A DNA stretch of 64,000 bases from Deferribacterales bacterium (GTDB lineage: Bacteria; Chrysiogenota; Deferribacteres; Deferribacterales; Geovibrionaceae), in the NCBI GenBank assembly GCA_050251945.1, contig JBFWLW010000003.1, positions 64,001 through 128,000 on the forward strand, written 5' to 3'. A model generated the notes under the pieces. That model saw only the letters and a list, made by a program, of their open reading frames with translations. It did not search any database and was not told the origin of the DNA. Below are positions 3,947 through 29,491 of this stretch, piece after piece. The first letter of the stretch is position 1. Every line of letters starts with the position of its first letter. Made by a program: the position numbers and the translations under genes.

Positions 3947-5287
3947 TTGGAACAGTTTGAGAACATCCTAAATATCATCGGAGGCTTTATCTGGGGCGTT
4001 CCGCTCCTTGTGCTTCTGGTTGGAACAGGCATCTACCTTACATTAAATCTTCGTTTTCTTCAGTTTACTAAACTTTTCTATGCTCTTTGGCTTGCACTTG
4101 TTAAACGTAAAGAGTACGACGACGAACCCGGCGACATCACGCACTTTCAGGCACTCATGACGGCAATGTCCGCAACTGTCGGCACAGGCAACATCGCAGG
4201 TGTTGCCACGGCGATAGCTTTGGGCGGTCCCGGCGCAATGTTCTGGATGTGGGTGACAGGTCTTGTGGGCATGGCGACAAAATACGCGGAAGCGGTTCTT
4301 GCCGTTAAATACCGCGAAGTTGACGAAAACGGCAATATGAGCGGCGGTCCCATGTATTACATTTCAAACGGTCTCGGCTGGAAATGGATGGGCGCGCTGT
4401 TCGCAGTGTTCGCTGTTGTAGCCTCTTTCGGGATAGGAAACATGGTTCAGGCAAACTCCGTTGCCGACGCTCTTCGCTCAACATTCAACGTCCCGACCTA
4501 TGCAACGGGTCTTGTGCTGATGGCATTCACCGCTCTGGTTGTCCTTGGCGGTATCAAATCCATCGGCAGGGTCACAAGTATTCTCGTACCTATCATGATA
4601 ATCTTTTATGTAATAAGCGCACTTATCATACTTGTTATGTTCGCGGACAAGATACCCGCGGCATTCGCACTTATTTTTGCAGAGGCGTTCACCCCCACGG
4701 CGGCATCAGGCGGCTTCGCTGGGGCAAGCGTTATGATGGCTATCCGTATGGGTGTTGCCAGAGGAGTGTTCTCCAACGAATCCGGTCTGGGCAGTGCGCC
4801 CATCGCGGCGGCGGCAGCTCAGACAAAGCACCCCGTTTCGCAGGCGCTGGTCTCCATGACTCAAACGTTCATCGACACACTGATAGTCTGTACAATGACA
4901 GGTCTTGTGCTTATCTGCACAGGCGCATGGGATATAGGCAAAAACGGAGCTGATCTTACAAACCACGCTTTCTCACTCGGATTTTCCGCGGGTCCGGTAG
5001 TGGTTGCCATAAGCCTTGCACTGTTCGCATATTCCACCATACTCGGCTGGTGCTATTACGGTGAAAAGTCCATGGAATATCTGTTCGGCGTGAAATCCAT
5101 TACACCTTACAGAATAATTTTCATCCTCTTCATCGGCGTCGGCGCCATGGCAAAACTGAACATCGTCTGGCTGCTTTCGGACATTTTCAACGGGCTGATG
5201 GCTCTGCCCAACCTTATAGGTCTTCTGGGTCTCTCTTCCGTTGTCTTTGCGGAAACGAAAGACTATTTTGCCAATTTAAAAAAATAA
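3947..5287 (+). CDS. alsT: Sodium:alanine/glycine symporter (AGCS family)
   Basis: [47 protein letters not shown] and [11 protein letters not shown] motifs; AAGGAGG RBS before the TTG start. Confidence 0.93.
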
Positions 5288-5302: not shown

Positions 5303-5331
5303 GGCGGTCAGCCTTTCTGACCGCCTTTTTT
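5303..5331 (+). terminator. Rho-independent terminator
   Basis: GGCGGTCAG/CTGACCGCC stem followed by a T-tract. Confidence 0.85.
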
Positions 5332-5347
5332 CGTTCTAAATCATTAC

Positions 5348-5406
5348 TGATATTCAATTTCAGCTTAGAAAAAACGTTGACTTTTTGTGTTCGCAGTGCT
5401 TAACAT
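5348..5406 (+). promoter_or_regulatory. Fur-like box and putative promoter of the fez-like operon
   Basis: TGATATT-C-AATTTCA (5348-5362; 11/14 to the 7-1-7 consensus TGATAAT-N-ATTATCA); TTGACT (5377)-18nt-TAACAT (5401). Confidence 0.5.
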
Positions 5407-5478
5407 TGAATAAGCGTTCGGGTTGACACATTAACAAATCTGCTCCCTTTCGGGCTTAGGGCGCACAGGACGGTTAGT

Positions 5479-7626
5479 GTGTTAAAGATTGCTCATTCCG
5501 CCCCCGACAGGGTAAGGCTTAAATATCCCATTCTCAGACAAGAGCAAAGTCTTTGCTCATCCATAATCAGCGTCCTTTCATCGAAACAGGGCATATCATC
5601 AGTGCGGTGCAACAGAAAATGCGCAAGCCTTATCGTTGCGTACGATGCTTCTGTCCTCTCCGTTTCGGATATCGTCAACGCAGTTTCAGGCATAAAACCC
5701 GTTAAACTGGTACCGGCCGAATCCGTAAAGGCAGACTGTGCGTGTTCCGATGCGAAGGACGGGCTGGCTCTTCTCAACAAAAAAACCGAGTTTGCCGCGC
5801 TCACCGCGATGACAGGCGCTTCGTTCATTTCAAAGCGGTTGTTCGGACGCGTCCTTTCTCAGGCTGTGTTCAGCCCCATGTGGTTCTTTACGGCATTCTT
5901 CGCGGCACCCCTTGTTTACACCGCCGTATCGAAAACACTGAAAGACAAAAAGATCGGACTGGACGCGTTTCTCGGAGCCGGCGTCGGCGCGGCACTTCTG
6001 ACAGGCGAAACCATGACAGCCCTTGAAATCCTCTGGGTGAACAGCGGCGCGGAACTCATGCAGGAACACATCACCGAAAAATCCCGCGCATCCATAAAAA
6101 ATATTCTGGACGTGACCGCAAAAACAGCCTTCGTTCTTATCAACGGGCGGGAGCTTGAGGTTCCCGTGGAAAAGGTTGAACAGGGCGCAACGGTAATTGT
6201 CCGCACCGGAGAAAAGATATCGGTGGACGGTGAGATTATCCGCGGCGAGGCGATGGTGAACGAAGCTCCCATAAACGGGCGTCAGGAACTGATCCACAAA
6301 ATAAAATCCGAAGGGGTTTATGCCGGAACTTACGTTCAGGACGGACTCATATACATCCGCGCGGACAGAGTCGGCGACAGCACATATCTTGCGCGCATAC
6401 TGCAGGCGGTGGAAACATCACTGGAGAACAAAGCGCCTATTGAGCTTGAAGCGGATAAACTCGCCAAAAAACTGGTGGGACTTGGATTCATCATGACCGC
6501 CGGAACCTTCCTGCTGACACGCAGTCTGTCCAGAACACTTTCGGTCATGCTCGTTATGACCTGTCCCTGTGCGACTGCACTGGCGGCATCGTCCGCAGTG
6601 AGCGCATCCATAGGCAATGCGGCTTCCAAGGGAGTTCTCATCAAAGGCGGCCGCTATCTTGAGGACGCTGGCGAACAGGAATCATTCTGTTTTGACAAAA
6701 CTGGAACCATAACCACAGACATGCCTGAGGTCATAGACATCTATCCGCTGAAAGGCTGGTCGGAACAGGATCTTCTCATGAGGGCATACGCTGCGGAACT
6801 GCACAACCGTCACCCCATGGCGGCGGCAATACGCAAAAAGGCGGAACAGCTCTGTCTGGAAAAACCCGACCACGCGGTATGCGAAACCATTCTGGGCATG
6901 GGCGTTGCGGCGGACACCGCAGAAGGCACCGTGTGCGTGGGCAACAGAAAACTTATGGACAGGTTCAGCATAAAAACAGGCACAGTGAAAAAACGTGCCG
7001 AAAAATGGGCGGAAGAGGGCAAAAGCGTCCTTTATGTTGCGGAAGACAGCAGACTGCTGGGGATAATCTCCATCCGCACCAGAGACAAAGAGGGCGTTGC
7101 AGAAATGATACAGACACTGCGCAAAGACGGCGTAAAAAATCTCATAATGGTAACGGGCGACGAAAGGCAGTCTGCGGAACCGCTGGCACTGCGTCTGGGT
7201 TTTGACGAATGTCACTATTCCGTTCTGCCGCAGGACAAGGCGGACATCATCCGCAATATACAAAAGGATCACAAGGTCGCAATGATAGGCGACGGCATCA
7301 ACGACGTTCTGGCGCTGGCACAGTCAGATCTGGGCATCGCCATGGGCGTGGCAGGTTCCGACGTTGCCGTTGAAGCGGCAGACATAGCTCTGGTGGACGA
7401 CGATCTGAACAAGATAATCTTCCTGCGTCAGCTCAGTAAAAAAACAAAAACGATAATACATCAGAATTTTTCCCTGGCAACATCAACCAACATCGCAGGC
7501 GCCATCCTCGGCGCTGTGGGCATACTGAACCCGGTTATGGCGGGGCTTCTGCACATAGCCCACACAGGCGGCATTATGGCGAACTCATCCCGGCTTATGA
7601 ACTATGACGGAGAAACAAATGATTGA
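5479..7626 (+). CDS. P1B-type ATPase, second ATPase of a ferrosome-type cluster (FezH-like)
   Basis: TCPC, DKTGT, HP, VTGD and GDGIND motifs; C-terminal HIAHT; N-terminal HSAPDRVRLK HMA-like domain. Confidence 0.88.
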   Translation: MLKIAHSAPDRVRLKYPILRQEQSLCSSIISVLSSKQGISSVRCNRKCASLIVAYDASVLSVSDIVNAVSGIKPVKLVPAESVKADCACSDAKDGLALLNKKTEFAALTAMTGASFISKRLFGRVLSQAVFSPMWFFTAFFAAPLVYTAVSKTLKDKKIGLDAFLGAGVGAALLTGETMTALEILWVNSGAELMQEHITEKSRASIKNILDVTAKTAFVLINGRELEVPVEKVEQGATVIVRTGEKISVDGEIIRGEAMVNEAPINGRQELIHKIKSEGVYAGTYVQDGLIYIRADRVGDSTYLARILQAVETSLENKAPIELEADKLAKKLVGLGFIMTAGTFLLTRSLSRTLSVMLVMTCPCATALAASSAVSASIGNAASKGVLIKGGRYLEDAGEQESFCFDKTGTITTDMPEVIDIYPLKGWSEQDLLMRAYAAELHNRHPMAAAIRKKAEQLCLEKPDHAVCETILGMGVAADTAEGTVCVGNRKLMDRFSIKTGTVKKRAEKWAEEGKSVLYVAEDSRLLGIISIRTRDKEGVAEMIQTLRKDGVKNLIMVTGDERQSAEPLALRLGFDECHYSVLPQDKADIIRNIQKDHKVAMIGDGINDVLALAQSDLGIAMGVAGSDVAVEAADIALVDDDLNKIIFLRQLSKKTKTIIHQNFSLATSTNIAGAILGAVGILNPVMAGLLHIAHTGGIMANSSRLMNYDGETND

Positions 7627-7915
7627 GGAACTTCTTGCAGTAAAAAAATATGTCTCGGTGGTACATCACGTCGAAGGGCGAATCAGACTTAAGATCGACC
7701 CCGCAATTATGAAAGACCCGGTCAGCAAGAGACTGGAAGAGATAAGCGCGTCCATACCGGGCGTGCTGGATAAGCGTATCAACATGCTGGCGCGTTCCGT
7801 TGTTCTGCGGTACGACCCCGCGGTTATACATCCGGTGGACATGGCGGCGCTTTTCGGGACATCCGACAGCGAAAGTCTGGCAATACTTAAAAAGTACGAA
7901 GATTTTATAAGTTAA
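7604..7915 (+). CDS. HMA-like (Cys-less) small domain protein, fez-associated
   Basis: HHVEGRIRLK...IPGVLDKRINMLARSVVLRYDP, similar to the N-terminal domains of both ATPases. Confidence 0.8.
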   Translation: MTEKQMIEELLAVKKYVSVVHHVEGRIRLKIDPAIMKDPVSKRLEEISASIPGVLDKRINMLARSVVLRYDPAVIHPVDMAALFGTSDSESLAILKKYEDFIS

Positions 7916-8004
7916 TGAGATAGCTTCGTTGCTTACACTCCTCGCGAAGACCGTAATTTATCCGTCTCTGCGAGGAAGCGTTCAGGCTGACGCGGCAGTC
8001 TCAT
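7915..8004. repeat. REP-like inverted doublet forming a long hairpin
   Basis: ATGAGA...CCTCGCGAAGAC...GTCTCTGCGAGG...TCTCAT; same family as the copies near 13.5, 27.9, 35.7 and 52.8 kb. Confidence 0.75.
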
Positions 8005-8044
8005 CTCACTGATCAGAATCAAAAAAATATAAAAGGAGGGTTTT

Positions 8045-8620
8045 GTGGAAAACAAAGAAACAAACGAAACACAGTCCGGAAACCCTGAACAGGAAACGCC
8101 TGAACAGGCACAACAGGGCTTCGGACAGGAAGCTCAGGGACAGTATATGGGTGGACCGGAAATGCAGAACCCATATATGGCAGGTCCTCAGATGCAGCAG
8201 CCGTTCATGGGCAATCCATACATGTATAACCCGTATATGTATCCGCCCCCCGGTTATCCGCCGATGCAGGGCTATGCACCCTATCCGCCGTTCCCGCCGT
8301 ATATGCCGCCTTATCCGCCGCAATACGGTTTTCAGCCTGCACCGCCCCAGCCTCTCAATGAGGAACATTGCGGACACCATCAGCAGGAAGACCCGATGAA
8401 CGGCATAATGGGCATGTTCGGACAGATGATAGAGGGCAACCCCCAGCTTTCTGAGGTCAGCAGGATGGTTAACGCCACAGGCAGCGACTTCATCAAGGGT
8501 CTGGTGATGGGCGCAGGACTGGCGATGCTTTTAAGCAGTGAATCGGTGCGTTCGGCACTGAGCGATATTCTCGGCAAAACAGTAAGCATGTTCACAGAGG
8601 ATTCGGAGGAACAGATATGA
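8045..8620 (+). CDS. Pro/Tyr/Gln/Met-rich low-complexity protein with a C-terminal GxxxG membrane segment, fez-associated
   Basis: Strong AAAGGAGG RBS before GTG; YMGGPEMQNP-type repeats; HCGHH; FIKGLVMGAGLAMLL; ATGA overlap with the next gene. Confidence 0.85.
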   Translation: MENKETNETQSGNPEQETPEQAQQGFGQEAQGQYMGGPEMQNPYMAGPQMQQPFMGNPYMYNPYMYPPPGYPPMQGYAPYPPFPPYMPPYPPQYGFQPAPPQPLNEEHCGHHQQEDPMNGIMGMFGQMIEGNPQLSEVSRMVNATGSDFIKGLVMGAGLAMLLSSESVRSALSDILGKTVSMFTEDSEEQI

Positions 8621-8943
8621 GTAAACATATAGGATCATCAATCGGCAGGGCAACGGTATCCGGCGCTCTGGCAGGCGCGGTCATCGGCGGCGCGGTGTCT
8701 GCGGCAAAGCAGACGAAAGATTACAAAGCGGGCAGGATAACAAAAGAAGAAGCAGCAGAAAACGTGGTTAAAGAAGCTGCCGGAACAGGTATCGCCACAG
8801 CGGCGGGCGTTGCCGCGGCAAGCATGTTCGGCTTCGGGATATTCATGTCCCTCATAGCCTTCACCGCAGCGTCCGCAGGCGCGAAATATCTTTGGGATTC
8901 ATCAGTTAAACCGTCAAATACAGCAACAGTTAAGGAGAGCTAA
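8617..8943 (+). CDS. Small Gly/Ala-rich GxxxG membrane protein, fez-associated
   Basis: GALAGAVIGG and GTGIATAAG helices; operonic overlap. Confidence 0.8.
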   Translation: MSKHIGSSIGRATVSGALAGAVIGGAVSAAKQTKDYKAGRITKEEAAENVVKEAAGTGIATAAGVAAASMFGFGIFMSLIAFTAASAGAKYLWDSSVKPSNTATVKES

Positions 8944-8945
8944 TC

Positions 8946-9263
8946 ATGGAACAGCAAAAAGCACCCGAAGCAGGACAGGGACAACAGCAGCAGCATTACT
9001 ACGCACCCCAGTATGCACAGCAGGCATACTATCCCCAGCAGCACACAGCCGCAAGCCATCTTAAAGAGTGGTTCAACTTCCGCGAGCCGTCATATGTCAA
9101 AGGTTTTGTTATCGGCGCAGGCGTTGCACTTGTTCTCACAAACCCCGCAGTTAAAAAAGCCATCGTAAAAGGCGTTGTAAAACTCTGGGGCGGTCTGCAG
9201 GGCGGAGTTGAAGAGCTGAAAGAGCAGATAAGAGACGTTCAGGCGGAGATGGGCGGAGAGTAA
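8946..9263 (+). CDS. Small GxxxG membrane protein with Q/Y-rich N-terminus and coiled-coil tail (FezA-like)
   Basis: QQQQHYYAPQYAQQAYYPQQH, YVKGFVIGAGVALVL, GVEELKEQIRDVQAEM; AAGGAG RBS. Confidence 0.8.
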   Translation: MEQQKAPEAGQGQQQQHYYAPQYAQQAYYPQQHTAASHLKEWFNFREPSYVKGFVIGAGVALVLTNPAVKKAIVKGVVKLWGGLQGGVEELKEQIRDVQAEMGGE

Positions 9264-9264
9264 T

Positions 9265-9462
9265 ATGCCGGAGGAAAAAAGAATAAGCCCCATGCAGAAA
9301 AAACGCAGATACGCCAAGTATGCCATGACGGCGGCACTGGGAGTTCTCGTTGTGTCGGGGTTTCAGAAGGGTAAATCTGCAAGACAGCTCCACGTTGCCA
9401 CAGGCGCGGCGCTGGTTGGTCTGGCGATATACCATACATCCCTCTACAAAAACAGGTCATGA
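9265..9462 (+). CDS. Small 2-TM membrane protein, fez-associated
   Basis: 65 aa with two hydrophobic segments and LHVATG..L....YH; fills the operon gap with an ATGA overlap. Confidence 0.7.
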   Translation: MPEEKRISPMQKKRRYAKYAMTAALGVLVVSGFQKGKSARQLHVATGAALVGLAIYHTSLYKNRS

Positions 9463-11561
9463 CGAAGAAAAAACACTATCCTACGGGATTTGAAAGCGTG
9501 AGCATAGCTCACAAAACTGACAGCAGAATTCGTCTTAAGGCGGGGGTGCTCGGCAACCCCGCCCTTGACTGTACACTTCTGGAATCCACTCTGGAGTGTA
9601 TAAACGGCGTAACAGCAGTCCGCGTCAATCAGCGCGCCAATACCCTTGTGGTGGAACACGAAAAGGGCAGAGAAATAACCGAACCGCTCCTTTCCACACT
9701 GCAGACCTTTTCCCATGCCGTCTTTCAGGCGGAAGAGGAACTTGTGGACTCCCCCGACCTGATAAACGTCTATTGGGCGGGTTCCATGTGGCTTTCAAAG
9801 CTGGTTCTGCCGCAGTGGTTCCGTACGCCGCTGACATTTGCGGGCGCGGCTCCCGTTCTTCTGAAAGGGATAGACACCCTTGTAAACGACGGTCTGAAGG
9901 TTGAAGTTCTTGATGCGGCAGTTGTGTCCATGCTCCTTATGCGCAGGGATTACTTCACAGCCGGTTCCATCACTTTTCTGCTGAACCTCGGACATTATCT
10001 TGAGGCATCAACCCAGTACAAATCCGACAGAATGCTGAAAAGCCTCATAAAACCGGACGTCGAGTACGTCTGGATTCTGGACGGACAAACCGAAAAAAAG
10101 GTACCCATCGGCGAAGTGCTTGTTGGAAGCCACGTCATCATAGGCGCAGGGGAGATGATACCCGTAGACGGTATCGTAAAAGGCGGCGAAGGGCTTATCA
10201 ATCAGGCATCCGTAACAGGCGAAAGCCTCCCCGTTACAGCGGGATACAACAGTGAGGTGTATGCCGGAACTGTTGTTGCGGAAGGGAAACTCATAATCGA
10301 AGCGCGGAAGGTGGGCGCTGAAACCACCACCGCCAGAATCGCAAAATTCATCAGTAATTCACTTAAAAACCGTTCCAACACAGAGGTGCAGGCTTTTAAA
10401 ATTGCCGACAGGATGGTTCCTGTCACCTTCGGCATAGGGCTTGGCACTCTCCTGCTCACGCGGGATTTCCGCAGGGCATCGTCGGTGCTTTCAGTTGACT
10501 ACTCATGTGCGCTGAAACTGGTCACACCCACAGCAATAAAATCCAGCATGTACTGCGCCGCATCCGAAGGCATCTTCATAAAGGGCGCGCAGTCTCTTGA
10601 AAACATGGCGAAGATCGACACTATAATATTCGACAAGACAGGAACGCTGACTAAAGGAACCCTTGAGGTGTCGGATATCTTAAGTTTTTCGGATATGGAT
10701 GAGCGGGAAATCCTGAGAACCGCCGCCAGTGCCGAAGAACATTACAGTCACCCCATTGCGGCGGCTGTCGTTAAAGAAGCTGAAAAAAAGAACATTTCCC
10801 TTGAGGAAACAGGGGAAGTGGACTTCATCATAGCCCACGGCGTTTCGGCGTACGTCGGCAAAAAACACGTTCTGGCAGGAAGCAGACACTTCATCCATGA
10901 AGATGAACACATCGACTGCTCTCTTGCGGACGACACAGCGGATAAACTGCGTAAAACGGGCAAAAGTATCCTGTATGTGGCATGCGACGGCGTGCTTGCA
11001 GGCATCATAGCCCTTAAAGACGTACCGAGAAACGAATCAGCACAGGTCATCAAAGACCTGAAAAAGCGGGGCATAGACCGCGTTGTCATGCTGACAGGCG
11101 ACCACAGGGATACGGCGAATCACATAGCCAAAGAACTGGGCATCAAAGAAGTATATTTTGAGATGAAGCCTGAAGACAAACTGGACGTTGTGAACAAATT
11201 TAAATCGGAAGGGCGCAGGATAGCCTTTGTAGGCGACGGGGTGAACGACGCTCCGGCTCTGCTCTCCGCTCACGTCGGCATCAGCATGCCCGAAGGCGCA
11301 GACCTTGCGCGGGAAACATCCGACGTTATCCTTCTGCGCAACGACCTGCGGGGTATACTCACAGCGCGCATCACCGCGGAACGCACCATGAAGGTCATAA
11401 AAAGGGTATCCGTTGCAAACATCGGCATCAACACAGTTACGGTGCTTCTGTCCGTTATGGGACGCATCAGCCCGCTGCAATCCGCCGTTATGCACAACGG
11501 AACAACCCTTGGAACACTGCTTTATGCTCTGAGCCTTTCCCAGAGCGGGAGAACACAATGA
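9459..11561 (+). CDS. fezB: P1B-6-type ATPase, ferrosome transporter FezB-like
   Basis: VDYSCALKL in place of CPC, C-terminal HNGTT (HNxxT), TGES, DKTGT and GDGVND; N-terminal R-rich HKTDSRIRLK. Confidence 0.85.
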   Translation: MTKKKHYPTGFESVSIAHKTDSRIRLKAGVLGNPALDCTLLESTLECINGVTAVRVNQRANTLVVEHEKGREITEPLLSTLQTFSHAVFQAEEELVDSPDLINVYWAGSMWLSKLVLPQWFRTPLTFAGAAPVLLKGIDTLVNDGLKVEVLDAAVVSMLLMRRDYFTAGSITFLLNLGHYLEASTQYKSDRMLKSLIKPDVEYVWILDGQTEKKVPIGEVLVGSHVIIGAGEMIPVDGIVKGGEGLINQASVTGESLPVTAGYNSEVYAGTVVAEGKLIIEARKVGAETTTARIAKFISNSLKNRSNTEVQAFKIADRMVPVTFGIGLGTLLLTRDFRRASSVLSVDYSCALKLVTPTAIKSSMYCAASEGIFIKGAQSLENMAKIDTIIFDKTGTLTKGTLEVSDILSFSDMDEREILRTAASAEEHYSHPIAAAVVKEAEKKNISLEETGEVDFIIAHGVSAYVGKKHVLAGSRHFIHEDEHIDCSLADDTADKLRKTGKSILYVACDGVLAGIIALKDVPRNESAQVIKDLKKRGIDRVVMLTGDHRDTANHIAKELGIKEVYFEMKPEDKLDVVNKFKSEGRRIAFVGDGVNDAPALLSAHVGISMPEGADLARETSDVILLRNDLRGILTARITAERTMKVIKRVSVANIGINTVTVLLSVMGRISPLQSAVMHNGTTLGTLLYALSLSQSGRTQ

Positions 11562-12244
11562 AACTGTCCGATGCAAAAAGCGGAGGCTTTTATAAAGTTA
11601 TGTCCGTGAAAGACGCCGAACTCGCCCGCAGGCTGGGTGCATACGGCATATTTGCGGGAACCATCGTTTCAAAGGTTGGCAGAGGCGACATAGAACTGGC
11701 AACGCTGAAAATATCCGTGAACGAAGTTACGAAGGCACTCAGCGGATCGCTGGCGAGGCATCTCTTCTATAAATCGCCATCTGGCGAAAAACGCAGCATC
11801 TATGAACATGAAACAGGTCTGGATTTCACCGTGGTTGTCCCGAAAACCGCGGCTAGTGATATGACAAAACTCGGTATAAAAGGCGGGGACACTATACAGG
11901 TTATAAAGAAGCTTCCGCATATGGAATACATCACCCTCGTCGGACACAAAACAAGATGCCGTCTTTCGGAAGCACACGCAGCATGTATTCTGGGCGACGG
12001 AAAACAGTTCTCTTTCGCATCAAAAAACAAGGATTTCATAGTCGACGAACTTTTGAGTCAGGAGACCTATGGTCAGGTCATGTCCGTTAACGGCATACAG
12101 AAAGGCACGCAGCTGACCCTTGAGGGTATCGAAACGGGGAAATCCGTCCATCTGGACGACTATCCCGACATGGTCATATGCACGGCGCAGGGGCTTAGGG
12201 TGTTCATATCCGAAAGCACTGCTGAAAAAATAAACGCCGAATAA
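11558..12244 (+). CDS. Multi-FeoA (SH3-like) domain protein
   Basis: KLSDAKSG...RRLGAYGIFAGTIV, KLGIKGGDTIQV and NGIQKGTQL...ISESTAEKI FeoA-like segments. Confidence 0.65.
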   Translation: MKLSDAKSGGFYKVMSVKDAELARRLGAYGIFAGTIVSKVGRGDIELATLKISVNEVTKALSGSLARHLFYKSPSGEKRSIYEHETGLDFTVVVPKTAASDMTKLGIKGGDTIQVIKKLPHMEYITLVGHKTRCRLSEAHAACILGDGKQFSFASKNKDFIVDELLSQETYGQVMSVNGIQKGTQLTLEGIETGKSVHLDDYPDMVICTAQGLRVFISESTAEKINAE

Positions 12245-12268
12245 ATTTTTCCCTTGAAATCAATGCGG

Positions 12269-12287
12269 GATAATGATATTCATTATC
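12269..12287. promoter_or_regulatory. Fur box
   Basis: GATAATGATATTCATTATC, 18/19 to the classical GATAATGATAATCATTATC; TTGAAA -35-like hexamer at 12254. Confidence 0.85.
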
Positions 12288-12345
12288 AACATTGCCCGTT
12301 TGGCATTTTAACGGGGTGCCCGAGCGGGCTTTCGGCACTATTTTC
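12288..12345 (+). ncRNA. Candidate Fur-repressed small RNA
   Basis: Directly follows the Fur box. Hairpin CCCGTT/AACGGG, then GGTGCC(C)GA/TCGGCACT followed by ATTTT. The next CDS starts ~190 nt further on. Confidence 0.4.
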
Positions 12346-12534
12346 CACGATTGTCAACCCAACGCTAACTGGACGAAATCTCCGATTTCAGACCATCGCA
12401 GAATGCCTTAAGCCCGTACCCCGACCACAATGTAATTATATGATTTTCTAAATATATCTCAAACGTTTTCTTTGAACTTGCGGTCACATCACTTCACACC
12501 GATATTAGTTAAACCAGCCGTACGGAGGTTAACT

Positions 12535-12969
12535 ATGAAAGATACTATCAAAGCCGGAACAACTGCAGAAATTGAATTAACCGTGAATGAAAATAAGACG
12601 GTTCCGAATCTCTATCCGGAATCAAATCTTTTCTCAACCATGCCAAGGGTTTTTGCGACCGGCTATATGGTGGGCTTTCTGGAATGGGCATGTATGGAAG
12701 CGCTGGCGCCCCATCTGGACGTGGGTGAACAGAGCGTCGGCACCAATGTGAACGTGACCCACTGCGCCGCGACTCCCGTGGGCATGAAGGTTCGCGCAAA
12801 AGCCGTATGCACCGGAGTGGACGGACAGAAGACGTCGTGGGAAGTGGAAGCATGGGACGAAAAGGAACTGATCGGAAAAGGAACCCACGAGCGCTTCACC
12901 ATAAATACAGACAGATTCAACATCAAGATGGCAAAAAAGTCCAACCCGCTGCTCAGGCTTAACTGCTGA
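12535..12969 (+). CDS. Hotdog-fold thioesterase (FlK/fluoroacetyl-CoA thioesterase-like)
   Basis: VFATGYMVGFLEWAC...SVGTNVNVTHCAATPVG...IGKGTHER; GGAGG RBS places the start at 12535. Confidence 0.88.
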   Translation: MKDTIKAGTTAEIELTVNENKTVPNLYPESNLFSTMPRVFATGYMVGFLEWACMEALAPHLDVGEQSVGTNVNVTHCAATPVGMKVRAKAVCTGVDGQKTSWEVEAWDEKELIGKGTHERFTINTDRFNIKMAKKSNPLLRLNC

Positions 12970-13593: not shown

Positions 13594-13620
13594 AGACCTC
13601 CCGTCAGCGGGAGGTCTTTC
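13594..13620. terminator. Terminator hairpin between convergent genes
   Basis: AGACCTCCCG/CGGGAGGTCT stem followed by TT; overlaps the Rrf2 stop codon. Confidence 0.6.
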
Positions 13621-14101
13621 TATGCTTAAACCATTCCTCGGTATCTTTTATCTGCTGCGGATCAAGCTTTTTATGCCGTTCATCATTCAGCCATCCTATT
13701 GTTTTTGAGCGCAGATGATCGCGCATCTTCTCTTCCGCCTCAAGCATTACCGTTTTTATGATACATGGTTTTTTGCAGTAAGCATCCGGAAGATTGTTTT
13801 TGTCTACAATGGCGCTGTGCTGGCGTATCTCACAGCACTGAAACAGCGGTGTTTCGCCCTCTATCGCCTGCACAACGTCCCAGAATGTTATTTCTTCCGG
13901 AGCGCGGGTAAGCTCATAGCCGCCGTTTACCCCCGGAATTGACCGCACAATCCCTGATTTACGCAATTTTGTAAGCATTTTTGAAAGATAGGTCTCTGAA
14001 ACACCCTGATATGCGGCAAGTTCCCTCACCCCGACAGGTCTGTCGCGCCCTATGAAGCAGAGACAGTGTAAAGCGTATTCAACTCCCACGGAAAACTGCA
14101 T
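13604..14101 (-). CDS. Rrf2 family transcriptional regulator
   Basis: VEYALHCL...SETYLSKMLTKLRKSGIVRSIPGVNGGYEL...ITFWDVVQAIEG; several C-terminal Cys. Confidence 0.93.
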   Translation of the reverse strand: MQFSVGVEYALHCLCFIGRDRPVGVRELAAYQGVSETYLSKMLTKLRKSGIVRSIPGVNGGYELTRAPEEITFWDVVQAIEGETPLFQCCEIRQHSAIVDKNNLPDAYCKKPCIIKTVMLEAEEKMRDHLRSKTIGWLNDERHKKLDPQQIKDTEEWFKHRKTSR

Positions 14102-23395: not shown

Positions 23396-23453
23396 TAATA
23401 TCTCTATTCCGCTATGTTTTCCTTTTTTTCCGCACCGGCATGACCTATACTAT

Positions 23454-23472
23454 GATTATGATAATAATTACA
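23454..23472. promoter_or_regulatory. Fur/PerR-like box upstream of the encapsulin operon
   Basis: GATTATGATAATAATTACA, 15/19 to the Fur consensus, abutting the AGGAGG RBS. Confidence 0.5.
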
Positions 23473-23482
23473 GGAGGTACAT

Positions 23483-23836
23483 ATGCCTGATTTCGGGAAT
23501 TCGTTCAGCGGACTGCAAAACGACAGAAAACTGACAGACAAAGAACTTATCAGAGCGATAAGGTTCATGGTTGCCGCAGAGTATGAGGCTATCCAGCTTT
23601 ACGAGCAGCTTGCGGAATCCACAGACAACAAGCTGGCTCAGCAGGTACTCTTGGACATTGCGGATGAGGAAAAAGTGCATGCAGGTGAATTTCTGAGGCT
23701 GCTTAAAGCTTTGGCACCGGATGAAGAAGGCTTTTATCAGCAGGGTTATGCAGAGGTTGAAGAAGAATTTTTATCAGGTTCTGCGGAAACAGACCCTAAA
23801 GACGGCGGTCTGGGAATCGGAAGCCTGAAGAAATAA
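23483..23836 (+). CDS. Encapsulin cargo: ferritin-like/rubrerythrin-fold protein with targeting peptide
   Basis: AEYEAIQLY...DIADEEKVHAGEF diiron motifs; C-terminal DGGLGIGSLKK cargo-loading peptide. Confidence 0.92.
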   Translation: MPDFGNSFSGLQNDRKLTDKELIRAIRFMVAAEYEAIQLYEQLAESTDNKLAQQVLLDIADEEKVHAGEFLRLLKALAPDEEGFYQQGYAEVEEEFLSGSAETDPKDGGLGIGSLKK

Positions 23837-23846
23837 GGAGAGATTT

Positions 23847-24641
23847 ATGAATTTCTTAAGAAAGGAATTCGCTCCTATAAGCGAAGAAGCATGGAAAGAG
23901 ATAAACAGACAGGCAAAAGACACTCTTATGGCTAACCTGTCTTCAAGAAAATTTGTAGATGTTGACGGACCCAAAGGGCTGGATTTTTCAGCAGTAAGCC
24001 TTGGAAGGCTGTTCCTGCCGAAAGCGCAGAAAGGAGCCGTTAAATACGGCATCAGCACTATCCTGCCGTTGATTGAGATAAGAACCCCGTTTTCCCTCGG
24101 GCTTTGGGAACTGGACAACATAGAGAGAGGCGCAAAGGACATTAACCTCGACCCGCTGACAGAAGCCGCAAAACAGACGGCGACTTTTGAAGAAACGGCT
24201 GTTTATCACGGATTCAAAGAGGGCGGGATATCAGGGATTAACCAACTTAATGTTCAGAAGGTTGCAATCTCACTTGATAAGGACAGCGTTACAGACGCGG
24301 TTACGGAAGCTTTGGCGATGATGCGCAAAGAAGGCGTGGCAGGCGGCGCAAACCTTGTGGTCAATCAGGAACTCTGGAAGTTCCTTGCGCACGTGTTTCC
24401 CGGCGGCACGCTGGGCGATACAATTAAAAACCAGATAGGCGGTTCCATTATCTATTCCGGTTTCGTTGACGGAGCGGTGCTCGTTTCCGCACGCGGAGGC
24501 GATGCAGAGCTTACGGTGGGACAGGATTTTGCCATCGGGTACACAAGCCACGATTCAGATAACATCAATCTGTTCGTGACCGAATCTTTCACTTTCAGGG
24601 TAGTCAACCCTGAAGGTTTTATCAGATTTGCAATTCAATAG
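23847..24641 (+). CDS. Family 1 encapsulin shell protein (Linocin M18/HK97 fold)
   Basis: MNFLRKEFAPISEEAWKEI...RKFVDVDGPKG...ELDNIERGAKD...GQDFAIGY...ESFTFRV; 264 aa. Confidence 0.95.
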   Translation: MNFLRKEFAPISEEAWKEINRQAKDTLMANLSSRKFVDVDGPKGLDFSAVSLGRLFLPKAQKGAVKYGISTILPLIEIRTPFSLGLWELDNIERGAKDINLDPLTEAAKQTATFEETAVYHGFKEGGISGINQLNVQKVAISLDKDSVTDAVTEALAMMRKEGVAGGANLVVNQELWKFLAHVFPGGTLGDTIKNQIGGSIIYSGFVDGAVLVSARGGDAELTVGQDFAIGYTSHDSDNINLFVTESFTFRVVNPEGFIRFAIQ

Positions 24642-28027: not shown

Positions 28028-29491
28028 TCACTTCACTTTATCAAGTGAAATCCCCATTGCTTCTGCAACACCTTTGCCGTATGCAGGGTCGGCCTTGAGA
28101 CAGTTGCCGATATGTCTTATTTTCACCATTTCCGGCGCATCGCCCATGGCGCGCGCGGTGTTCCAGAAAAGCACCTTCTGCTGTGCAGGGGACATCAGAC
28201 GGAAGAGCATACCCGGCTGGGTGTAGTAATCGTCGTCGTCCTCGCGGAAGTCATACTGGAAAGCTGCACCGTCAAGCTCAAGCGGCGGCTCTTTTATCTG
28301 CCACTGATCCTTCCATTCGCCATAGCTGTTTGGTTCGTATGCCAGAGTTGAACCCTGATTTCCGTCAACACGCATCTGCCCGTCCCTGTGGTAGCTGTGG
28401 AAGGGACAGCGCGGCTTATTTACAGGAATCTGATGATGGTTCACGCCAAGTCTGTAGCGCTGTGTATCCCCGTATGAAAACAGCCTTCCCTGAAGCATCC
28501 TGTCAGGTGAAAAGCTTATGCCCGGCACGATATTGGCAGGGTTGAAAGCTGCCTGTTCCACATCCTGAAAGTAGTTCTCAGGATTCTGGTTCAGCTCGAA
28601 ATAACCTACTTCCATAAGCGGAAAATCTTTTTTATACCATACTTTTGTAAGATCGAACGGATTATAGGGCATCTTCTGCGCCTGTTCCTCTGTCATAAGC
28701 TGAACGTACATCTTCCATCTGGGATAGTCACCCTTGTCAATGCTTTCCAGCAGGTCGCGCTGGTTGCTCTCGCGGCATTTGCCTATGACCTTTTCCGCCT
28801 CTTCATCCGTTAGATTTTCAATGCCCTGCTGTGAAACGAAATGAAATTTAACCCACGTACGCACGTTGTCCGCGCTGATAAAGCTGAAAGTGTGGCTTCC
28901 GAAACCGTGCATATGTCTGTATGAGCGCGGTATCCCCCTTTCGCTCATGGTTATAGTAACCTGATGGAGCGCTTCGGGGAGAGATGTCCAAAAGTCCCAG
29001 TTGTTCTTTGCACTGCGAAGGTTTGTTCTCGGGTCACGCTTTACGGCATGATTAAGGTCGGGAAATTTCAACGGATCGCGCAGAAAGAAAACGGGGGTAT
29101 TGTTGCCGACAAGGTCCCAGTTGCCCTCCTCGGTATAAAATTTCATGGCGAAACCGCGTATGTCTCTCTCCGCATCCGCAGCACCCCGCTCGCCTGCTAC
29201 TGTTGAAAAGCGGACGAACATGTCCGTTTTCTTACCTATGTCGGAAAACATCTTCGCCTTTGTATATTTCGTTATGTCGTTTGTGACCGTGAAAGTTCCG
29301 AAGGCGCCGGAACCCTTTGCGTGCATCCTCCTTTCGGGGATGACCTCTCTGTCGAAATGCGCCAGCTTTTCAAGAAACCATATGTCCTGAAGAAGCATGG
29401 GACCTCTTTTTCCTGCCTGCACAACGTTCTGATTATCCGCAACGGGAACACCCGCCGCGGTGGTCAGATGTTTTTCATTCTTCTTATCCAT
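28028..29491 (-). CDS. katA: Monofunctional heme catalase (small subunit)
   Basis: [27 protein letters not shown] and [14 protein letters not shown] motifs. Confidence 0.97.

Follow-up and report, generated by a model that had tools for sequence, protein, structure and literature searches.

Does an eight-gene cluster of a Deferribacterales bacterium encode the machinery for ferrosomes, lipid-bounded organelles that store iron, and how might its expression follow the iron status of the cell? The cluster in question occupies positions 5479-12244 of a 64,000-nucleotide (nt) stretch of DNA (positions 64,001 to 128,000 of contig JBFWLW010000003.1, assembly GCA_050251945.1) which was analyzed as a whole and is referred to as the window. 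A preliminary description, made without database searches, had proposed a ferrosome (fez)-type cluster at this site. This proposal held up: DYSCA and HNGTT motifs are present, the pump carrying them groups with DYSCA/HNxxT ATPases in a tree, and the accessory genes match published categories. We conclude that 5479-12244 is probably a complete, large, two-pump fez cluster, whose predicted role is to form iron-storing membrane vesicles in the cytoplasm. That this organism forms ferrosomes we infer from homology.

Pump type and gene content

The second ATPase of the cluster carries most of the argument. The gene at 9459-11561 encodes FezB, a P1B-6 ATPase of 700 amino acids (aa) with DYSCA at residues 347-351, 41 residues ahead of DKTGT (392), and HNGTT at residues 679-683, while its N-terminus contains RIRLK at residues 23-27 and CxxC is found nowhere in the protein. 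In the available part of their preprint, Grant & Komeili (bioRxiv 10.1101/2020.01.10.902569) define the P1B-6 subgroup including FezB by D[Y/F]SCA together with HNxxT and describe RxR as typical of FezB and related pumps. Residues D347, Y348, S349 and C350 as well as H679, N680 and T683 were invariant in an alignment of 11 homologs. The best matches came from entries for Seleniivibrio woodruffii (88% identity) and Denitrovibrio acetiphilus (72%), which places the genome near Seleniivibrio within Deferribacterota, and the N-terminus matched Pfam HMA_2 at a level under the cut-off of that family (E 6e-6, 26.8 bits).

Tree position points to the same assignment. A maximum-likelihood tree was calculated with a quick method for 97 of the 101 P-type ATPase open reading frames (ORFs) of the collected loci, one P2-type ATPase, two fragments and one sequence with X having been dropped beforehand. 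The background of this tree consists of mixed P1B ATPases from among the matches listed by a contig search with a FezB alignment (generic P-type motifs), the species used as ferrosome models not being among those listed. The window FezB falls inside a clade of 22 rows comprising all 20 rows with D[YF]SCA and HNxxT and two rows with DYAC and HNxxT, with a Shimodaira-Hasegawa-like approximate likelihood ratio test (SH-aLRT) value of 84, or 97 when one long-branch row is counted in. None of the 69 CPC, CPH, CPD or CPG rows on the other side of the tree falls in this clade. The pumps of Rhodobacter capsulatus and Amorphus carry DYAC as their TM4 (fourth transmembrane helix) motif, whereas the window protein carries DYSCA. 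Judged by both motifs and by its tree position, the product of 9459-11561 is of the FezB/P1B-6 type.

All eight ORFs of the cluster lie on the + strand and four of the seven junctions overlap (by 23, 4, 4 and 4 nt), the remaining gaps being 1, 2 and 129 nt long. On the 5' side the cluster is bounded by a sodium:alanine symporter gene (3947-5287) with a terminator-like hairpin directly 3' of it (5303-5325), and on the 3' side by a thioesterase-like gene (12535-12969). The gene content agrees with the preliminary description, which had listed eight co-directional genes for two P1B ATPases, a Cys-less HMA-like protein, four small membrane proteins and a FeoA-repeat protein. Both large ORFs match TIGR01525 (E 1e-138 and 2e-145), and the N-terminal motif H-x4-R-[IV]-R-L-K reported for both ATPases and the HMA-like protein is found as RVRLK at residue 11, RIRLK at residue 23 and RIRLK at residue 26, respectively.

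A tblastn search combined with ORF matching recovered the complete set of eight genes, collinear and on a single strand, from four relatives belonging to the same family (G006, G003, G011 and G010). Since the order of the eight ORFs is kept in these relatives, the small ORFs are taken to be genes and not chance ORFs. Further, hidden Markov models of the eight families recovered all eight in the same order in three loci of Desulfobacterota (L116, L117 and L119), seven of eight in a fourth (L118) and five in a fifth locus that ends at a contig edge (L120). In one additional locus (L121, G140:C3:249000-262000) genes for a window-type FezB, a FeoA-like protein and the 65-aa protein were present, with no FezH-like or MamC-like gene within 13 kb. 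The eight-gene order in the Desulfobacterota loci indicates that the cluster of the window is one instance of a widespread fixed unit.

How does this unit compare with fez clusters already described? According to the available part of the preprint, fez clusters contain two to ten genes, with DUF4405 and DUF2202 conserved but not found in every cluster, and the larger clusters encode FezH, R-rich soluble and membrane proteins, GxxxG proteins and a FeoA protein (Grant & Komeili, bioRxiv 10.1101/2020.01.10.902569). The window cluster resembles the larger clusters with FezB and FezH in its P1B-6 FezB, its R-rich soluble, GxxxG and FeoA proteins, its gene number and its anaerobic host; it differs in having neither DUF4405 nor DUF2202, and the part of the preprint considered here does not name Deferribacterota as a host. 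The same source describes a six-gene fez operon as necessary in S. putrefaciens and R. palustris, the S. putrefaciens operon being sufficient in E. coli (bioRxiv 10.1101/2020.01.10.902569). As far as this source goes, the six-gene operons share with the window a FezB gene that follows genes for GxxxG and two-helix proteins, together with an HMA-like R-rich protein, but they have one pump and no FeoA protein, whereas the window has two pumps and a FeoA-like protein. FezB of the six-gene type is 37-41% identical to the window FezB among the matches listed. The fez clusters of D. magneticus RS-1 (fezABC) and C. difficile also encode FezB and, in the portions of the sources considered, make FezB-dependent iron-phosphate vesicles tied to the response to iron starvation; both are minimal clusters, in contrast to the eight genes found here. 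The expanded cluster with extra low-complexity components that had been suggested is not peculiar to this organism, as FezH, R-rich, GxxxG and FeoA proteins had already been described. Since larger clusters are on record and the eight-gene order occurs in two phyla, the cluster is no new variant.

The first gene of the cluster (5479-7626) encodes a FezH-like P1B ATPase of 715 aa with an N-terminal HMA_2/R-rich motif (RVRLK at residues 11-15), CPC at residues 362-364, DKTGT at residue 406, the pattern QNF..A..N and HIAHTGG at residue 692. Four orthologs group with this pump in a clade that is sister to that of FezB (SH-aLRT 97), and its R-rich N-terminus, CPC and HxxHTxG are kept in nine orthologs from two phyla. 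FezH is introduced in the available preprint text as the second ATPase of larger fez clusters, uncharacterised and with distinct metal-binding sites (bioRxiv 10.1101/2020.01.10.902569). The first ATPase fits FezH by its sequence features (CPC, HIAHTGG, RVRLK and sister-clade position), the two having been compared by description only.

This pump raises the question of cargo. The cluster could build a membrane compartment whose content is not, or not only, iron, with the FezH-like pump loading Mn, Co or Zn. Such a reading draws on the strictly conserved CPC and HxxHTxG, which fit no known motif class in the tree, on the preprint's description of FezH just cited, and on the absence of Cys from the HMA_2 protein of the cluster. 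It is opposed by the FeoA domains and Fur boxes, which point to iron (within the cluster, the link to iron consists of a FeoA domain and a predicted Fur box at 12269-12287), and by the constant presence of FezB beside FezH in the eight-gene form. We hold a different cargo to be improbable.

Several observations weigh against a fez cluster that builds iron-storing vesicles. Among the matches listed, even the closest FezB-type proteins from named Proteobacteria and Firmicutes share only 35-41% identity with the window protein, and the tree was built without the experimentally studied FezB proteins of D. magneticus (DMR_28330), S. putrefaciens, R. palustris (RPA2333) and C. difficile. For FezB membership we therefore rely on the motifs as defined in the literature and on the shared clade with proteins that carry them. 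The CPC site of the FezH-like pump is typical of soft-metal exporters, so that a cargo other than iron is possible. No Pfam match to DUF4405 or DUF2202 was obtained among the eight cluster proteins at E values up to 0.1. The strong predicted Fur box does not lie where an operator of the operon would, and the upstream site alone is at chance level. In our literature search no paper joining ferrosome and Deferribacter and no granule observation for Deferribacterota was found. Further, the available part of a Chem Rev review mentions neither ferrosome nor FezB.

Would ordinary metal efflux account for the same genes? In this case the two pumps would export Fe(II) or soft metals at the cytoplasmic membrane, with the small proteins acting as accessory factors and no organelle being formed. 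Both pumps score well over the cut-off of TIGR01525, a generic heavy-metal ATPase family, among solved structures, where no FezB-type protein was found, CopA and a Cd/Co pump come nearest, the FezH-like pump carries CPC, and granules are unseen in this lineage. Against efflux stands the requirement for the DYSCA/HNxxT pump type in ferrosome formation, reported for three species in those parts of the sources considered here. Moreover, across two phyla the pumps occur in a fixed order with four small membrane proteins, including a member of the MamC family of organelle-membrane proteins, and the four further P1B ATPases of this genome place among the 69 rows outside the FezB clade, with ordinary CPC exporters. 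Efflux or detoxification without an organelle is therefore considered unlikely, if somewhat less so than a vesicle with another cargo, and we continue with a ferrosome-type cluster as the preferred reading.

Membrane and accessory proteins

The gene at 8617-8943, located in the middle of the cluster, encodes a two-helix membrane protein of 108 aa with GALAG/GAVIG in helix 1, an acidic loop, helix 2 and KYLWD at residues 90-94. This protein matches NF038051 (MamC) over profile positions 13-93 of 97 with an E value of 6e-17 and 61.7 bits, the cut-off being 100. Four orthologs match the same model at E 1e-11 to 5e-19 (45-68.5 bits), and all six homologs recovered by a word search are labelled PF26373, called MamC in Pfam 38.1. 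A profile built on the MamC-like proteins of fez clusters retrieved 274 representatives at E 0.001 or better among 1.84 billion. NF038051 was matched by 150 of 150 proteins scanned, namely by 149 of the best 150 of these 274 representatives (P0121 excluded) and by the window protein; nine of the 149 exceed the NF038051 cut-off. The alignment of the 108-aa protein with MamC proteins that pass the cut-off is gap-free over helix 1, the charged loop, helix 2 and the K-Y-x-W-D end, at 22-37% identity. Thus, it shares with MamC (Mms13) its length class, two A/G-rich helices, the charged loop and this C-terminal end, but differs in scoring under the equivalog cut-off and in being encoded in a fez cluster. 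Since 61.7 bits is below 100, the protein is not filed as MamC itself; on sequence grounds it is a true relative of MamC.

The MamC-like gene was found to travel with FezB. A MamC-like gene and FezB (at least 67% identity) are present in the same 11 of 41 genomes, the MamC-like gene always lying just 5' of FezB. Among 401 Desulfobacterota genomes 15 carry a MamC-like gene: in ten, a FezB-type gene of the same orientation is no more than about 1.1 kb away, in three, a P1B ATPase gene of 32-34% identity is within about 1.4 kb, in one, the two genes are on different contigs, and in one, no ATPase match was obtained at the threshold. When the 23 Desulfobacterota genomes with a FezB-type match were divided by identity, a MamC-like gene was present in 10 of 11 genomes of the 43-47% group and in 1 of 12 of the 37-41% group. 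In a separate observation, a two-helix ORF before the gene for the GxxxG protein in R. capsulatus (L014:9345-9698, +) showed a weak match to the MamC-like profile (hhalign E 5e-6, probability 86%), while the NCBIfam MamC model was not matched by this ORF. Six-gene fez operons may, as judged from such profile comparisons, contain a very distant member of the MamC family. No statement of a link between MamC and ferrosomes was found in the literature by a search that did not extend to the Nature 2022 ferrosome paper.

Given a protein of this family, one might ask if the cluster is a remnant or simplified version of a magnetosome-type system. The NF038051 matches of the 108-aa protein and its four orthologs speak for this. 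Its score, however, stays under the MamC cut-off, and it was the sole match in a scan of the genome for NF038051. The other seven genes of the cluster gave no match to a magnetosome family, although the rest of the genome was not searched for other mam families. In addition, the MamC-like protein is associated with FezB and not with mam genes in two phyla. A magnetosome remnant is the least plausible of the alternatives, to the point of being hardly credible, and a fez cluster containing a MamC-family member is preferred.

Three of the four small membrane proteins contain a GxxxG helix, as the preliminary description had stated (GLVMG 152, GALAG/GAVIG 16-24 and GFVIG 53), the exception being the 65-aa protein. 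Transmembrane segments and helices were called by a crude hydropathy scan, which is too coarse for counting helices. The gene at 8045-8620 encodes a protein of 191 aa, recognized by composition and motif, whose low-complexity N-terminus is rich in P, Q, G, M and Y and which has GLVMG at residue 152. The 105-aa protein (8946-9263) combines a Q/Y-rich N-terminus with a GFVIG helix at residue 53 and a conserved charged C-terminal helix. A common C-terminal GxxxG helix makes the C-termini of these two proteins paralogous. Among orthologs, the C-terminal helices of the small proteins are well kept, and the P/Q/Y/M-rich N-termini differ in length and sequence. Homologs of the 105-aa protein are encoded directly 5' of FezB in R. 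capsulatus (E 7e-14), in a betaproteobacterial metagenome-assembled genome (5e-10) and in Collinsella (about 3e-4). The betaproteobacterial homolog has a long N-terminus rich in M, G, H and Q, which indicates that low-complexity tails on GxxxG proteins are a normal fez feature and not peculiar to this cluster. The 65-aa protein (9265-9462) has two moderately hydrophobic helices and two His residues, His43 and His57, that are invariant in an alignment of eight orthologs from two phyla. It reached no Pfam family at cut-off, with weak matches to DUF423 and DUF4079 below theirs.

Two proteins of the cluster are predicted to be soluble. The 103-aa R-rich protein (7604-7915) contains no Cys, in line with the earlier call of a Cys-less HMA-like protein, and resembles Pfam HMA_2 (E 1e-6) at 28.9 bits, the Pfam cut-off being 30. 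No transmembrane segment was seen by the hydropathy scan, RIRLK (residues 26-30) lies inside the HMA_2-like fold, and the orthologs begin at the Met encoded at 7619. Related ORFs are present in the fez loci L008 and L014. The HMA_2 protein of R. capsulatus, considered as a source of the FezC membrane part for comparison with the 65-aa protein, does not have two clear helices. The last gene (11558-12244) encodes a FeoA-like protein of 228 aa in which a FeoA domain is followed by two FeoA-like units according to the predicted structure. The FeoA repeats claimed earlier are only partly borne out by sequence: the first domain was matched (E 5e-11, 42.9 bits), the second is sub-threshold (20.3 vs 23 bits) and the third has no sequence match. 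Compared with each other, the three thirds of the protein gave weak hhalign matches (E 0.009-0.09). The predicted structure (predicted local distance difference test score 89.7) repeats a beta-alpha-beta-beta-beta-alpha-beta pattern three times, and the whole model matches FeoA chains and a DtxR-type SH3-like domain with Z 9-10 over 70 residues. Foldseek alone returned nothing for this model at E 0.001 or better.

Work on fez systems in D. magneticus, S. putrefaciens, R. palustris and C. difficile provides a working model for the cluster. At the expense of ATP, FezB would carry Fe(II) out of the cytoplasm into a vesicle where iron would precipitate with phosphate, and the vesicle membrane would hold the FezH-like CPC pump as a further transporter. 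The two GxxxG low-complexity proteins, the MamC-family hairpin and the 65-aa protein would sit in this membrane and shape it. The Cys-less HMA_2 protein, which has RxRxK as in the pumps, and the triple FeoA-like protein would act on the cytoplasmic side as pump adaptor or regulator.

Predicted iron control

Fur-like boxes were scored against the 19-mer GATAATGATAATCATTATC and its 7-1-7 form TGATAATNATTATCA, a consensus from work on E. coli and B. subtilis. The preliminary description had seen such boxes on both flanks of the cluster. The downstream one is close to the consensus in sequence, and the upstream one is weak, though conserved in two relatives. On the + strand at 12269-12287, 25 nt past the last stop codon, lies the near-consensus box GATAATGATATTCATTATC with 18 of 19 matches (0.01 expected by chance), the only one of its kind in the window. 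It is found at the same place in three relatives (G006, G003 and G011), with 2 mismatches, and overlaps a conserved promoter-like sequence, TTGAAA-17-TGaTATTCA, that points away from the operon. Upstream, the 19-mer (5343-5361) has 13 of 19 matches, and the 7-1-7 site TGATATTCAATTTCA (5348-5362, +) departs from TGATAATNATTATCA at 3 positions; by chance, 3.5 sites of this quality are expected per window. Both lie 5' of the -35 element of a promoter-like sequence, the 7-1-7 site directly so, and this site is kept in G006 and G003. The promoter-like sequence itself (TTGACT-18-TAACAT, 5377-5406, +) comes from a consensus scan only, which returned 10 sites where 6.9 were expected, so that it is weak alone; its -35 element is kept in relatives. 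According to the source material considered here, fur mutants of C. difficile form ferrosomes constitutively.

What would a strong Fur box do behind an operon? Downstream of the box, at 12313-12426 (+), we identified a 114-nt non-coding element that is conserved and structured, with a minimum free energy z-score of -4.4, and that probably represents an RNA. It measures 114-116 nt across relatives and is kept despite differing next genes, which encode a thioesterase in the window and G006, a flavodoxin in G003 and a ThrE-type exporter in G011. The diverged copies of G003 and G011 independently fold to the outer architecture of the window element. Of 68 genomes from the phylum, a covariance model detected the element in 7, as a single copy in each and invariably behind fez; the seven belong to one genus and one further species. 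An Rfam search of 12150-12650 in E-value mode returned no family, only a chance snoR26 match under the cut-off, and no intrinsic terminator was seen in the element. As a side observation, the long-chain flavodoxin gene of G003 (L100:725-1246, -; Pfam E 7e-24) lies about 410 nt from the Fur-boxed element; flavodoxin is the classic substitute for ferredoxin under low iron.

The loop of the element, UGUCAACCCAACGC (12352-12365), is conserved, mostly unpaired and complementary, with a one-base bulge, to the 15-mer GCGTTCGGGTTGACA in the fez leader (5414-5428, +). The 3.07 Mb genome contains no exact match other than these two. The 15-mer of the leader is kept in G006, G003 and G011, and the inverted pair, about 6.9 kb apart, is the sole exact pair in G002, G004, G005 and G006, with one change in G003. 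No exact match to the 15-mer was found in four g3 genomes that carry fez but lack the element, none near the fez cluster of G010, and none in G001, which is without fez. The duplexes predicted between loop and leader have energies of -24 to -29 kcal/mol in four genomes, which at most 4 of 500 mononucleotide shuffles reach. We abandoned the idea that the whole leader repeats the 114-nt element in inverted form, as only 27-32 of 54 aligned columns agree outside the 15-mer core.

Taken together, the sequence makes the 114-nt element a candidate Fur-repressed RNA that possibly pairs with fez mRNA. Alternatively, one DNA-binding protein could bind at both the loop and the leader site, or the two could be inverted repeats that persist as relics. 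Iron control of fez is probably indirect as well as direct, with a weak Fur-like site before the operon and a strong Fur box behind it. The latter would drive the 114-nt RNA, and the loop of this RNA is able to pair with the fez leader at the leader's 5' end. RyhB of E. coli is a Fur-repressed small RNA, and the element resembles it as a short structured transcript with a Fur-overlapped promoter and an exposed loop pairing with an iron-storage mRNA, all of which is predicted here. Unlike RyhB, it is a 114-nt element without sequence relation to it and without an Rfam match.

We therefore put forward, as a tentative proposal that is more doubtful than the fez assignment, that the fez operon is under its own Fur-repressed small RNA and that a MamC-family protein resides in the organelle membrane. 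As iron falls, Fur would leave 12269-12287, the RNA would be made, and its loop would pair with the 15-nt site and so set the level of the machinery.

Other genes of the window are recorded for completeness. A second iron-storage system is encoded 11 kb from the fez cluster (23453-24641) and comprises a ferritin-like protein of 117 aa (23483-23836) with the C-terminus GGLGIGSLKK and, encoded by the next gene, the shell protein of an encapsulin (23847-24641; Linocin_M18, E 5e-81). Fur-like 7-1-7 matches are present just 5' of the ferritin-like gene, at 23453-23473. On the opposite strand, a gene for an Rrf2-family regulator (13604-14101, -) lies 1.4 kb downstream of the fez cluster, and a catalase gene (28028-29491, -) is found farther downstream.

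Conclusions

In conclusion, this locus extends ferrosome-type clusters to Deferribacterota while leaving the basic picture of fez clusters unchanged. Seleniivibrio woodruffii and Denitrovibrio acetiphilus, both culturable, carry the same eight genes, and the two-pump form could be studied there. The fixed gene order over two phyla provides a clean unit for heterologous expression. Further, the Fur-boxed element with its unique match in the leader suggests a concrete route by which the operon might sense the iron status of the cell, and the MamC-family member is a testable link between the two bacterial iron organelles. If the proposal of a dedicated small RNA and an organelle-membrane MamC relative is true, a RyhB-like circuit would be devoted to a membrane-bounded iron store, and ferrosomes and magnetosomes would share a building block.

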